This document shows, one piece after another, positions 19,154 to 22,319 of a stretch of 64,000 nucleotides of DNA. The translations under genes and the position numbers were made by a program. Each line of letters begins with the position of its first letter. Positions within the stretch are counted from its first letter, which is position 1. Source of the DNA: Candidatus Bathyarchaeia archaeon (GTDB taxonomy: Archaea > Thermoproteota > Bathyarchaeia > Bathyarchaeales > Bathycorpusculaceae); assembly GCA_049515895.1 (NCBI GenBank), contig JBEKTQ010000004.1, forward strand, positions 1-64,000. The letters are read 5' to 3'. Under the pieces are notes generated by a model that worked only from the letters and a program-made list of their open reading frames with translations, had not been told where the DNA came from and ran no database searches.

Positions 19154-20842
19154 ATGCCCACATCTTTCAAATTGCTTTCGGAACTGCTTGAAAAAGTTGA
19201 AGCCACAAGAAAACGGCTTGAAATCATAGATCTGACAGCAAACTACTTGAAAACACTTGAGGCGGAAGAGGTGGAACCTGCGACGAACATGATGGTTGGA
19301 AGAGCCTTTCCAAAGTACAGCCAAAAAACGCTTGACGTCAATTGGTCAACGCTGACCCGAGTCTTAGAATGCATCAGCAAATTCGACTGGAAGCTTTTCC
19401 GCCAAGCCATGGCAAGCACAGGCGACATAGGCTCAGCAACAAAAACCGTCCTTGAACAGGCAAAAACACAGAAACAAACGCAACTGACTGAAACAACGCT
19501 AACCCTTACCGAAGTTAAGCGGGCACTGGAAGCTATCGCTCAAACGTCCGGTGAAGGAGCAAGAACCAGGAAAGAACGTCTAATGACCTCACTCATGAGC
19601 CAAACCACACCAGTTGAAGCCAAGTACCTCGTCAAAATTTTCACAGGCGAAATGCGCACGGGACTTCAAGAAGGCTTGATGGAGCAAGCCGTAGCTAAAG
19701 CTTTCCAAGTTCCAGTGCAGTGTGTGCAGCATGCAAGCATGGTTTTAGGCGACATCGGGGAGGTTGCAGCGATACTAAAAGCCACGGGGGCCGAGGGCTT
19801 AGAACAAGCCTCCTTCACAGTTTTCAGACCAGTTAAGCTCATGCTTGCCCAAACTGCCCAGACTGTGAAAGAAGCATTGGATACGCAAGGTTGCAGGACA
19901 GCTTTTGAATACAAGTATGACGGGGCAAGGGTTCAAATTCACAAGCAAAATGAAGTAATCCAAGTTTTCAGCCGAAGATTAACTAACGTGACAGAAAGCC
20001 TTCCGGAAATCGTTGAAACAGTGCATCTTAATATCAAGGCGCAGTCAGCAATAGTTGAAGGCGAAGTCGTCGCGCTCAACAGCGCAGGCTATCCAATAGC
20101 TTTTCAGCACTTGATGCGACGCTTCAAACGGATCCGCAATGTCACCGACATGGCCAAGAAGATCCCTTTGGCTCTTTACTTGTTCGACATTCTATACGTT
20201 GACGGAAAAAGCCTAATCACTATGCCCTACACCCAGCGAAGGCAAATCCTCGCAGAAAACGCAGGCCAAATCCCCATGAGCAAGCAAATCGTTACTGAAA
20301 AAGTCGAGGAGGCAGAGGATTTCCTTAAAGAAGCCATAGCCGCGGGTCAAGAAGGATTAATGGCGAAGAAGCTTGACAGTCAGTATACACCCGGAAGCAG
20401 AGGAAAAAAATGGCTGAAAATTAAAACAATCCTTGAACCATTAGACCTCGTGATAACAGCCGCCGAGTACGGCTACGGTCGGCGCAAAGGCTGGCTTTCG
20501 GACTACTACCTTGCAGCGAGAGACCCAGAGACTGGCGGTTTTTTGGAGGTTGGTAAAACTTTCAAGGGCTTAACCGATGCCGAAATAATTGGGATGACAA
20601 AGCAACTTAAAGAATCCGTCATCGCGGAAGAGGGTCATCGAGTAATCGTTATCCCGAAAGTCGTCGTTGAGGTGGCGTATAACGAAATACAGTGGAGCCC
20701 CAAATACAGGAGCCAAATGGCGCTTCGGTTTGCCCGGATAAGCCGCATCCGTGAAGACAAGACACCGCAAGAAGCTGACACTATCGTCAAAGTCAAGGAA
20801 ATTTACGAAAAGCAGTTCCTGCAAAAGGGCAAGTTTGCATAA
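19154..20842 (+). CDS. lig: ATP-dependent DNA ligase
   Basis: Motif I EYKYDG, EGEV, LFDILY, EGLMAK, WLKIK, LRFAR; N-terminal DNA-binding domain. Confidence 0.97.
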   Translation: MPTSFKLLSELLEKVEATRKRLEIIDLTANYLKTLEAEEVEPATNMMVGRAFPKYSQKTLDVNWSTLTRVLECISKFDWKLFRQAMASTGDIGSATKTVLEQAKTQKQTQLTETTLTLTEVKRALEAIAQTSGEGARTRKERLMTSLMSQTTPVEAKYLVKIFTGEMRTGLQEGLMEQAVAKAFQVPVQCVQHASMVLGDIGEVAAILKATGAEGLEQASFTVFRPVKLMLAQTAQTVKEALDTQGCRTAFEYKYDGARVQIHKQNEVIQVFSRRLTNVTESLPEIVETVHLNIKAQSAIVEGEVVALNSAGYPIAFQHLMRRFKRIRNVTDMAKKIPLALYLFDILYVDGKSLITMPYTQRRQILAENAGQIPMSKQIVTEKVEEAEDFLKEAIAAGQEGLMAKKLDSQYTPGSRGKKWLKIKTILEPLDLVITAAEYGYGRRKGWLSDYYLAARDPETGGFLEVGKTFKGLTDAEIIGMTKQLKESVIAEEGHRVIVIPKVVVEVAYNEIQWSPKYRSQMALRFARISRIREDKTPQEADTIVKVKEIYEKQFLQKGKFA

Positions 20843-20864
20843 GTTCACGATAGTCCAAAATCAG

Positions 20865-21100
20865 AAGTTTACGAAAGTATTTGCCCTCTGTCAAGGAAGC
20901 CGCCGCCAGCACCGTAACTCCTATTGGGCGAGGAGTTTCAACCCTTCAAAGGAGAAAGAAGAGTTGATTTGGGGATTGGGTTTGGGCTTTTTTACTGGCG
21001 GCGGCTTTGCGTGTGAGTGTTATTTGTTTGATGCTGCTTGGCTCGTTTTGGTTGCTCTTTTTTCTTTTGTTTGATTAGCTACTACTGCGAGTAGTAACGA
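20865..21100 (-). ncRNA. Putative structured non-coding RNA of unknown class
   Basis: Perfect 13-bp inverted repeat (20897-20909 / 20995-21007) enclosing two hairpins, plus a 5' hairpin at 21078-21098. Mismatches read as G-U only on the minus strand. BRE/TATA lies upstream and there is no ATG. Ends are approximate. Confidence 0.55.
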
Positions 21101-21121
21101 TAGTGTTTGACCGTAACTTTT

Positions 21122-21138
21122 TACTTAAACCTTTTTCC
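21122..21138 (-). promoter_or_regulatory. BRE + TATA box for the putative ncRNA
   Basis: Minus strand reads GGAAAAAGG-TTTAAGTA, about 23 nt upstream of the first hairpin. Confidence 0.55.
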
Positions 21139-21290
21139 AAATAACACCCTTTTTATTACTTAATCTCGCAAGGTGGACCAAAAAGAAAGTAACAACCAAA
21201 TGGGACATATGCAAAGCAATTCGATTAGCTTGGTAATTAAAGGCAAATATACCACCTGAAACAAAATTCACTTTGGGAACGGTTAAGAAA

Positions 21291-22319
21291 ATGGCAGGAA
21301 AGGAAGACTTCGCTACAGATTTCTACAGTCGCCAAGTCAAAATGAAAGAACTGGGCGAAAAAGGTCAGCAGCGTTTGTGCAAATCCAAAGTTGCAGTGGT
21401 CGGCGTAGGCGGGCTGGGCACGGTTTCTTCGCTGTATCTCGCGCTGGCTGGGGTTGGTTACATGCGTTTAATTGACCAAGACACGATTGAAACGCAGAAT
21501 CTTCATCGCCAAATCCTGTACACCCCGGCTGATTTGCATTACCCGAAGGCTGAAGTCGCCGCGAGACGCCTGCAGGAAGTCAATCCGATGGTTAAATGTG
21601 AGGCTTTCACTGAGAACGTGAATGCAAGCAATGTGGAAAGACTTTTGCAGGGCGCGAATTGTGTGGTTGATGGTTTAGATAATATGGTGACCCGCTACCT
21701 TGTTAACCGTGCCTGTGTAAAGCTAAAGATCCCTTACGTTTTTGGAGCAGCAATCGGTATTGAAGGGAACCTTTCAGTCTTTGAGCCTCCCGAAACGGGA
21801 TGCTTAGAATGTTTAATGCCGAACCTCTCCGACAATGATTTGCTAACATGCGCAACGCGTGGAGTAATCGGAGCAACACCGGGAACAATCGGCGCTCTGC
21901 AGGCGATGGAAACCATAAAATTGTTGGCTGGGATCGGCTCAAGCTTGAAGGGTAAATTGCTTGTGTGCGATTTCAGCGATATGGATTTTACCGCAATTGA
22001 GATTTCGAAAAGCACTCGGTGTCCCGTCTGCCACGGCGATTTGTCTTCGGTCGCTGGCGGCGAAAGGCTTGTTTGGCTTTGCGGACGAGATACAGCTAAC
22101 ATTAACCCTGAAAAACCCTTGCGTCTAAACCTTGATGAAGTTTACTCAGCCGTTAACAAGCAGTTCAACGTTCGCTTGAAGTCTCGTCTGGCTCTTATGT
22201 TCAATTATAACGGTTACGAAGTTAGCCTCTTCAACGGGGGAAGAATGCTGATAAAGGGAGTAATCGATGAACAAAAGGCGTTGGTAGTTTATCGGGAAAT
22301 ACTCAAAAAAATAGTTTAA
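21291..22319 (+). CDS. moeB: HesA/MoeB/ThiF family E1-like adenylyltransferase
   Basis: YSRQ, GVGGLG, D.D....NLHRQ, CLEC, TC...GV, CPVC, and a C-terminal LCGRD domain. Confidence 0.88.
   Translation: MAGKEDFATDFYSRQVKMKELGEKGQQRLCKSKVAVVGVGGLGTVSSLYLALAGVGYMRLIDQDTIETQNLHRQILYTPADLHYPKAEVAARRLQEVNPMVKCEAFTENVNASNVERLLQGANCVVDGLDNMVTRYLVNRACVKLKIPYVFGAAIGIEGNLSVFEPPETGCLECLMPNLSDNDLLTCATRGVIGATPGTIGALQAMETIKLLAGIGSSLKGKLLVCDFSDMDFTAIEISKSTRCPVCHGDLSSVAGGERLVWLCGRDTANINPEKPLRLNLDEVYSAVNKQFNVRLKSRLALMFNYNGYEVSLFNGGRMLIKGVIDEQKALVVYREILKKIV

Follow-up and report, generated by a model that had tools for sequence, protein, structure and literature searches.

What, if anything, is encoded between two plus-strand genes in the genome of a Candidatus Bathyarchaeia archaeon? 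The window (the whole stretch of DNA that was analysed, 64,000 nucleotides long) contains a spacer flanked by a gene for an ATP-dependent DNA ligase (lig; 19154-20842, plus strand) and a gene of the ThiF/MoeB family (moeB; start at 21291, plus strand). An initial annotation of this spacer had proposed that it holds a structured non-coding RNA (ncRNA) of a novel class, transcribed on the minus strand from its own archaeal promoter. We ask here whether there is such an RNA gene, what kind of RNA it would specify, and how it would be controlled. Bathyarchaeia are abundant uncultured archaea of peat and sediment whose gene regulation is almost undescribed, and among the papers listed by a literature search on small and non-coding RNAs of Bathyarchaeota none concerns a regulatory RNA.

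Our answer is that the locus is very probably a real, conserved gene for a structured ncRNA of about 240 nt, which would run on the minus strand from ~21100 to ~20858. The RNA is genus-restricted and previously undescribed, and it comes from peat-dwelling Bathyarchaeia. To call it a novel class, however, is an overstatement, since its anatomy fits a known kind of base-pairing regulatory small RNA (sRNA). It is most likely a stress-controlled regulator of translation, and we assign a probability of about 0.5 to the overall reading of a repressor-controlled, trans-acting sRNA that masks Shine-Dalgarno (SD) sites. So read, the locus is a compact module of promoter/operator, candidate repressor, covariation-supported RNA and candidate seed. 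Below, G000 denotes the genome that carries the window, other G numbers denote genomes, and L numbers denote extracted loci.

Fold, family and covariation

Every motif described in the initial annotation was located on the minus strand where it had been placed (Table 1). When the minus strand of 20865-21110 is folded with ViennaRNA, the minimum free energy (MFE) is -66.3 kcal/mol (z-score -5.52), a stability reached by none of 200 dinucleotide shuffles, and the fold reproduces exactly the proposed architecture: a 5' hairpin, an A/C-rich spacer, and a stem (P1) closing a domain that contains a linker and two hairpins (P3 and P4). The plus strand of the same stretch, by contrast, has a z-score of 0.00, with 99 of 200 shuffles equally good. 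Ten other cores of the family described below have z-scores between -3.4 and -6.6, and in nine of the ten the lower score belongs to the proposed RNA strand. Furthermore, among 26 distinct sequences of the type found in G000 (type A), the variants of P1 comprise 13 G.U cells and a single A.C cell when read on the minus strand. This P1 count is the best evidence that the RNA is on the minus strand, which agrees with the direction first suggested.

As had also been noted, the minus strand contains no ATG across 21100-20858. None of the open reading frames (ORFs) in the spacer has a convincing start. The earlier statement that the element lacks the hallmarks of tRNA, 5S, SRP, RNase P or C/D-box RNA stands as well: Rfam 15 covariance models, which also cover H/ACA RNAs and known archaeal sRNAs, have no match at gathering scores in the whole 64-kb window, a search of 14 homologous loci against Rfam gives none at E ≤ 0.1, and ARAGORN reports no tRNA or tmRNA. 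A match to mir-1426 within 20700-21400, with an E value of 1.1, was set aside as chance.

The element is single-copy in the 3.18-Mb G000 genome, where the next BLAST match has an E value of 0.018 over 29 nt, and a BLAST search of 40 related genomes with the G000 element returned short chance matches only. Since that search was uninformative, homologs were sought through synteny, in the loci of the 30 best ligase matches (G000's included). In most loci having both genes, the gap between lig and moeB is ~45 bp, with the ligase stop codon inside the B recognition element (BRE) and TATA box of moeB (…ATAAAGGCAAATATAA…); this compact form is represented by loci L030 and L033-L038, and the window positions concerned are 20822-20842 and 21237-21251. 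Inserts of 400-730 bp are found between the two genes in G000, G016, G053 and G063. Those of G016 and G053 are visibly homologous to that of G000: the promoter block, the palindrome, a spacer rich in A and a hairpin whose loop is the same are common to all three, and each has a long GC stem whose arms are different yet complementary.

The G063 spacer (L031) has a different insert of ~600 bp, which ends in an orphan AAGCCGCCGCCAG, identical to a P1 arm, and has neither loop motif nor partner arm; the insert may represent a copy that has decayed or been replaced. The promoter and palindrome of G063 are found elsewhere (L062), followed by unrelated A/C-rich sequence. In the more distant G050 and G058 (L046, L051), an ORF of ~190 aa takes the place of the RNA after the ligase gene, and beyond it lies a ThiF-like gene of more divergent sequence (56-59% identity).

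Might the insert be no more than a decaying remnant of mobile DNA, or an inverted repeat or attachment site that matters at the level of DNA, with no RNA function? Because the spacer typical of the genus is ~45 bp, the 400-730-bp segment is indeed an insertion, and RNA-bearing genomes contain an AAAGGCAAAT-like stretch twice, at the ligase end and as the moeB promoter, so that the two flank the insert like a long target-site duplication; the 13-bp inverted repeat formed by P1 is internal, not terminal. The orphan P1 arm of G063 and the patchy distribution of the RNA (18 of 120 genomes) point the same way. On the other hand, the 450-bp spacer has no transposase or integrase gene; promoter, operator, stem and loop motif are kept though the sequences otherwise diverge beyond detection by BLAST; and P1 shows compensatory and G.U-only changes. 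G000 also has one copy only, according to BLAST with its element, and model R2 below finds one in each positive genome, which tells against the transposon, or miniature inverted-repeat transposable element, that the initial annotation had named as its alternative. We regard the whole explanation as scarcely credible.

A BLAST search of 120 genomes of the genus with the G053 copy added G098, G020 and G123. With a three-piece pattern, 20 loci were obtained from species-representative genomes (eight Bathyarchaeota metagenome-assembled genomes and 12 chance matches in bacteria) and 28 from metagenomes (18 family members and 10 chance matches); the outcome is 23 non-redundant cores. These are of two types: type A, which includes G000, with P1 formed by GCCGCCGCCAG / CUGGCGGCGGC, and type B, with P1 formed by GCCGCCUCCAC / GUGGAGGCGGC. 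Covariance model R1, built for type B, finds 5 of the 120 genus genomes, and R2, built for type A, finds 13, with G123 weakly in addition and one copy per positive genome. The two models together place the RNA in 18 of the 120 genomes, all from a single Bathyarchaeia genus. R2 found none in a sample of 138 genomes from 62 other genera of the order, searched under stricter filters. Extra weak R1 matches in G078 and G041 were dropped, as they lie inside coding regions (by eye, ABC-2-like and inositol-monophosphatase-like frames). Pooled over genus genomes and metagenome contigs, the family has 32 distinct members; it could be added to RNA family libraries, so that the lig-moeB spacer would be annotated in metagenomes.

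Is it the structure that is conserved? In a MAFFT alignment of 17 type-A cores that was not fitted to structure (A6), 90.4% of cells are paired at the P1, P3 and P4 positions described, compared with 27-61% when the partners are slid, and the covariation score of 0.096 (vs 0.066) is reached in none of 500 shuffles. In the alignment of the 26 distinct type-A sequences (A7), 11 of 23 pairs have changed on both sides; shuffles give 3.8 +/- 1.3 such pairs, and none of 500 reaches 11. P1 is 98.1% paired in these 26 sequences, and the closing stem measures 12-15 bp across the family. The inner helices vary among members: P3 stem sequences differ with pairing retained, and P4 in type A has 85.4% of its cells paired, five of its seven pairs having changed on both sides in at least one sequence. 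In the five sequences of type B, 5 of 19 pairs are compensatory, and between types A and B two P1 positions show double changes, from G-C to U-A and from G-C to C-G. The P1 variants of the nine type-A sequences that came from the model search are transitions that retain pairing as G.U. RNAalifold, applied to the type-A MAFFT alignment, recovers P1 only, and the inner helices needed the structure to be stated. A further alignment, A5, was left unused because R1 treats the G000 interior as an insertion.

Three points detract from this evidence. A7 is fitted to the model; the shuffle counts overstate the case because relatives are not independent; and 23 of the 32 members were gathered by a pattern fixing the P1 arms and the motif, the other nine by a model trained on them, so that the invariance of P1 and motif is partly a matter of ascertainment. 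Even so read, a homolog search and covariation analysis of the kind that the initial annotation had recommended yield 32 members and more double-changed pairs than shuffles do, and the homologs keep the structure through compensatory and G.U changes, as its proposal of a minus-strand ncRNA gene with its own archaeal promoter would predict.

The conserved segment can also be read on the plus strand. There a GGAG, at AAAGGAGAA, is followed 5-15 nt on by TTG or GTG in 20 of the 23 members, and in one more by ATG 3 nt on. The resulting ORFs are hydrophobic and 12 to >70 aa long (the TTG at ~20963 in G000 gives 36 aa), with MGIGYG(I/F)LLAAAL... common to close relatives. A small hydrophobic peptide of this kind might be a type I toxin, with the minus-strand RNA as its antitoxin. 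Yet relatives that share a start read through the conserved stem in different frames (LAAAL, WRRL, GGG), even near-identical sequences are frame-shifted relative to each other in their C-terminal halves, and two of the 23 members have no suitably spaced start. G/T-rich DNA yields stop-poor hydrophobic frames by its composition, and no plus-strand promoter is evident; moreover, the preponderance of G.U over A.C among P1 variants (13 vs 1) fits RNA-level selection on the minus strand. We therefore think a plus-strand peptide very unlikely.

The CU-rich loop and its possible targets

The most conserved feature of the RNA is one on which the initial annotation laid no stress, namely a CU-rich loop resembling an anti-SD sequence. 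All 32 members contain UCUCCU, and 30 contain UUCUCCUU; the predicted unpaired probability of UCUCCU averages 0.84 over the 32 members, compared with 0.44 elsewhere in the core. In type B another single-stranded CCCCUUCUCC stands immediately before the P1 3' arm, and in type A P4 holds a second CUCC, paired to GGAG. The type-A alignments also conserve the linker stretch ACCCAA-nCCCCAAA and the GCCCAAU-like loop of P4, and GCCCAA does recur, as first observed: the linker contains it, and so does the second hairpin, in its loop. Two further suggestions have fared less well. The pseudoknot that was to involve a GGGC on the 3' side lacks comparative support because GGGC is kept in only 4 of 32 members, and for a template-like RNA no support was found.

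With what could the loop pair? The 3' end of the G000 16S rRNA is GGAUCACCUCCU, with the tail CCUCCU, and GGAG lies upstream of 256 of 2094 G000 ORFs, compared with 101 for a control taken within ORFs. Ribosome-binding sites of the AAAGGAGAAA type are complementary to the loop over 10 nt, but by inspection to no more than about five bases of the 16S tail; for sites of the AAGGAGAA type, the loop motif is the better complement of the two. Among G000 ORFs of at least 60 aa, 55 have AAGGAGAA 3-13 nt before the start codon, and ten of these 55 belong to a family of secreted proteins of ~900 aa with PQQ_2 and immunoglobulin (Ig)-like domains. With crude start calls, the 8-mer is found in 8 of 27 paralogs of this family, as against 2 of 170 other ORFs of at least 600 aa, and duplex energies are lower for the family (-9.5 vs -6.4 kcal/mol). 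The targets named in silico are leads only, and not specific. The leader of moeB, which was considered as a target, contains a 9-nt loop complement in G016 but none in G053 or G000 (by eye), and was treated as chance.

The surface-protein family is greatly expanded. Its members, of ~850-1000 aa, have a signal peptide, a PQQ_2 beta-propeller and Ig-like domains; G000 has its 27 paralogs on contigs C1-C37 (e.g. L137-L146), one of them at C4:143936, outside the window, and each of five relatives has 12-45 matches. Many of the genes have near-identical A-rich ribosome-binding sites (…AAAGGAGAAAAA…ATG).

According to the mechanism that we propose, the RNA would present an unstructured A/C-rich 5' stretch and a P1-closed domain exposing UUCUCCUU and C-rich single strands, and UUCUCCUU would pair with the ribosome-binding sites of a set of mRNAs with AAGGAGAA-type SD sequences, so that initiation would be blocked. 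We place the chance that the RNA acts by masking SD sites slightly below even.

The closest known kind, and one that the RNA appears to fit, is the archaeal base-pairing sRNA with anti-ribosome-binding-site loops. In a published account (PMC5867862), sRNA154 and sRNA41 of Methanosarcina mazei have loops complementary to ribosome-binding sites, and masking of those sites and repression of initiation are proposed. The RNA described here is like them in being an intergenic archaeal RNA, between one and a few hundred nt long, that has stable stem-loops and a loop complementary to ribosome-binding sites, and also in its genus-level conservation and its control by a stress or nutrient regulator (which in our case is predicted). 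It is unlike them in phylum (Bathyarchaeia), in the long closing stem round a multibranch domain, in the A/C-rich 5' arm and in the ArsR-like palindrome. No relation to them by sequence or through Rfam was found, though no direct comparison with the sequences of sRNA41 and sRNA154 was made. A looser analogy is with the RsaE/RoxS-type sRNAs of Firmicutes, in which several unpaired C-rich motifs pair with G-rich SD regions and which have a dedicated repressor or responder; unlike theirs, the motif of the archaeal RNA is CU-rich (UUCUCCUU) rather than CCCC, and the sequences are unrelated.

The same single strands could serve another purpose. CCCAAA, CCCCAAA, GCCCAAU and UUCUCCUU are repeated, conserved and single-stranded, and the 5' spacer, 26-127 nt long, is 75% A+C (A 49%, C 26%, G 16% and U 8% family-wide; A 41, C 19, G 8 and T 5 in the 73 nt counted for G000). 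These features, together with the lack of specificity in pairing-based target prediction, would suit a sponge or scaffold that sequesters an RNA-binding protein (e.g. one that is Sm-like, or pyrimidine- or CA-binding), after the manner of the protein-sequestering RNAs CsrB and CrcZ. Such a role strikes us as doubtful: no candidate binding protein is linked to the RNA, whose neighbours are lig, ThiF/MoeB and ArsR-like genes; the copy number is low, with one or two CUCC per RNA; and the sole invariant motif is the exact complement of a common type of SD sequence.

The start-site palindrome and its possible repressor

The conserved block upstream of the RNA, with the consensus GGTGTTnnTTGG(G/A)AAAAnGTTTA(T/A)(A/G), is kept among the tabulated and aligned relatives and is similar to other G000 promoters; its BRE and TATA box would act as the canonical archaeal promoter of the RNA. 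A palindrome of the GCTACTA-N-TAGTAGC type lies upstream of 30 of the 32 members. The initial annotation had described the G000 copy as a 5' hairpin, and this hairpin is indeed present at 21098-21078; in most relatives, however, the corresponding sequence follows the TATA box and precedes the predicted start, and it is chiefly a palindrome of the repressor type. Counted from the first T of the TATA box, its distance is 31-32 nt in seven rows of the spacing table (G000, L077, L096, L100, L105, L107, L117) and 13-18 nt in eight (L083, L085, L086, L088, L089, L091, L094, L121), and the 13-18-nt spacing occurs in type B and in several type-A members. The usual archaeal spacing from TATA box to start, from which the predicted start at ~21100 derives, would make a palindrome at 13-18 nt span ~-14 to +5. 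In L120 a partial copy of the palindrome stands between the full one and the TATA box, and the 23-nt segment that separates the two elements in the G000 clade may be a degenerate second copy of the operator.

Which protein might bind this site? A strict form of the palindrome, CTACTA-N5-11-TAGTAG, occurs only twice in G000 (0.44 expected), both times at a single locus (contig C22; L067 3013-5485), where two palindromes ~165 bp apart share a 230-bp region between divergent genes. One of these genes is ArsR-like (HTH_5, 109 aa); the other is BlaI-like (Penicillinase_R, 149 aa) and is followed by a BlaR1-like Peptidase_M48/M56 gene. The second palindrome is preceded by a promoter block resembling that of the RNA. 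The pair of 19-mers of C22 recurs in many genomes of the genus, RNA-less ones included; the 19-mer at the RNA promoter of G016 is identical to one at the transcription-factor locus of the same genome; and in many genus genomes palindromes lie 35-65 nt upstream of ArsR-like genes. In G081, G056, G044 and G123, an ArsR-like gene with its own palindrome adjoins the RNA (in G081 the order is lig > arsR-like > < RNA, moeB >). A palindrome-associated ArsR-like gene or gene fragment is found in all 18 RNA-positive genomes and was identified in only about nine RNA-negative ones, although the grouping depends in part on the palindrome itself and the genomes are related to one another.

The archaeal BlaR1-type signalling module of C22 is recurrent across the genus. 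G016 has two complete ArsR-palindrome loci and, on contig C5, two further palindromes (CTACTACATACGTTAGTAG) that are identical to each other and separated by 1.1 kb (170438 and 171515); the regulon of this genome may be duplicated or enlarged.

Since the palindrome is shared with the ArsR-like promoter and the genes are linked, we read it as the probable operator of a winged-helix repressor. The ArsR-like protein is the most likely candidate for this role, and the BlaI-like protein comes second. That the RNA is controlled through the palindrome we consider somewhat better than an even bet. The repressor, sitting on the start-site palindrome, would block the RNA promoter, and upon its release the RNA would be made together with the BlaI/BlaR1-like sensor operon.

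This arrangement is like that of ArsR/SmtB and BlaI/MecI modules, both in having a dyad-symmetric operator that overlaps the core promoter of target and regulator genes and in its cast of HTH_5 and Penicillinase_R regulators with a BlaR1-like Peptidase_M48/M56 partner. The box recognized by BlaI, MecI and CopY is TACA/TGTA, unlike the half-site GCTACTA found here. The arrangement differs further in that the ArsR-like protein is cysteine-free, the regulated product is an RNA, and the operator is a predicted one.

A bolder version of this scheme, distinctly speculative in our view, would make the RNA the output arm of an ArsR-like/BlaI-BlaR1-like envelope-stress circuit that throttles the PQQ-propeller/Ig-like surface proteins. 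The UUCUCCUU loop would then out-compete the 16S anti-SD for AAAGGAGAAA-type sites, of which an exact example is present in 8-10 of the 27 paralogs. If true, this would be the first defined regulator-sRNA-target module in Bathyarchaeia. Confirmation of SD masking itself would extend this form of sRNA regulation to a new archaeal class, and would tie it to a BlaR1-type sensor system.

Several observations weigh against the reading of a repressor-controlled, SD-masking sRNA, and they touch each of its steps. A look-up of RNA-seq runs for this DNA listed none, and the transcript is a prediction from the sequence, as are its strand and ends. Wobble outside P1 does not discriminate between strands (G.U 12 vs A.C 9 in P3, 15 vs 15 in P4), and R1 scores G000 at only 20.5 bits, with 15.3 for its plus strand. 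The loop motif is mostly paired in 4 of 32 members, and in 8 of 23 the MFE fold leaves it in a junction instead of enclosing it in a hairpin. As to targets, SD-led genes are apparently a minority in G000; the duplex ranking is unspecific, its first 40 places including only four of the 27 surface-protein paralogs; and A-rich ribosome-binding sites of a similar kind are present in relatives that lack the RNA. In a small comparison with crude start calling, AAGGAGAA was found in 2/6 and 0/5 in RNA-positive genomes, vs 1/5, 0/6 and 0/6 in RNA-negative ones. Finally, the ArsR-like protein has no cysteine, and its preference over the BlaI-like protein as putative binder of the palindrome is drawn from gene linkage.

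Coordinates and neighbouring genes

Table 1. Parts of the proposed RNA locus in 5' to 3' order of the minus strand, with positions in the window.
Feature	Position	Strand	Basis
Conserved upstream block GGTGTTATTTGG, with BRE GGAAAAAGG (21138-21130) and TATA box TTTAAGTA (21129-21122)	21122..21148	-	sequence, alignment
Segment from TATA box to palindrome, 23 nt, G000 clade only; start predicted at its 3' end, ~21100	21099..21121	-	spacing table
Palindrome GTTACTACT-CGC-AGTAGTAGC, likely repressor operator; in the G000 clade also 5' hairpin of the transcript (arms as read on the minus strand, GUUACUACU-CGC-AGUAGUAGC, 21098-21078)	21078..21098	-	sequence, fold
A/C-rich spacer, predicted unstructured	21008..21077	-	fold, composition
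P1 5' arm AAGCCGCCGCCAG; perfect 13-bp stem with 3' arm	20995..21007	-	sequence, fold
Single-stranded C/A-rich linker with CCCAAA, CCCAAU, CCCCAAA	20968..20994	-	fold
P3 hairpin, loop UUUCUCCUUU at 20957-20948; UCUCCU at 20955-20950	20938..20967	-	fold
P4 hairpin AACUCCU/AGGAGUU, loop CGCCCAAU	20916..20937	-	fold
P1 3' arm CUGGCGGCGGCUU	20897..20909	-	sequence, fold
3' tail with terminal U4 run 20860-20857, 15 nt from lig stop codon	20857..20896	-	sequence

A run of at least four T lies no more than 85 nt after the core in 30 of the 32 members, and the U4 run of G000 is likely to mark the 3' end of the RNA by termination. This run is a weak terminator, and its position so close to the lig stop codon (only 15 nt) would also be compatible with action in cis, either by antisense pairing or by transcriptional interference, on a convergent lig or ArsR-like gene. 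Of the 23 non-redundant loci, 18 have lig downstream in convergent orientation, and two more, L085 and L086, have an ArsR-like gene so placed; on longer loci, G081 (=L085), G056 (=L086) and G044 show the convergent ArsR-like arrangement. Action in cis is nevertheless unlikely. The conserved covarying part is entirely outside the coding region of the neighbour, and the convergent partner varies between lig and the ArsR-like gene; in G123, where the ArsR-like gene is divergent on the promoter side, the convergent downstream neighbour is another gene. By our own count, the distance to the lig stop codon ranges from ~55 to ~360 nt, and an effect in cis would have no need of the invariant loop.

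The ligase of the window is the second of two paralogous ATP-dependent DNA ligases and shares 34% identity with the other, at C5:24304-26049. Among 61 genomes searched, most have a counterpart of the C5 ligase and roughly half have the window-type ligase. In several genomes (e.g. G064, G014, G020, G004, G023 and G021), stops or frameshifts interrupt the window-type gene, which suggests that this ligase is being lost.

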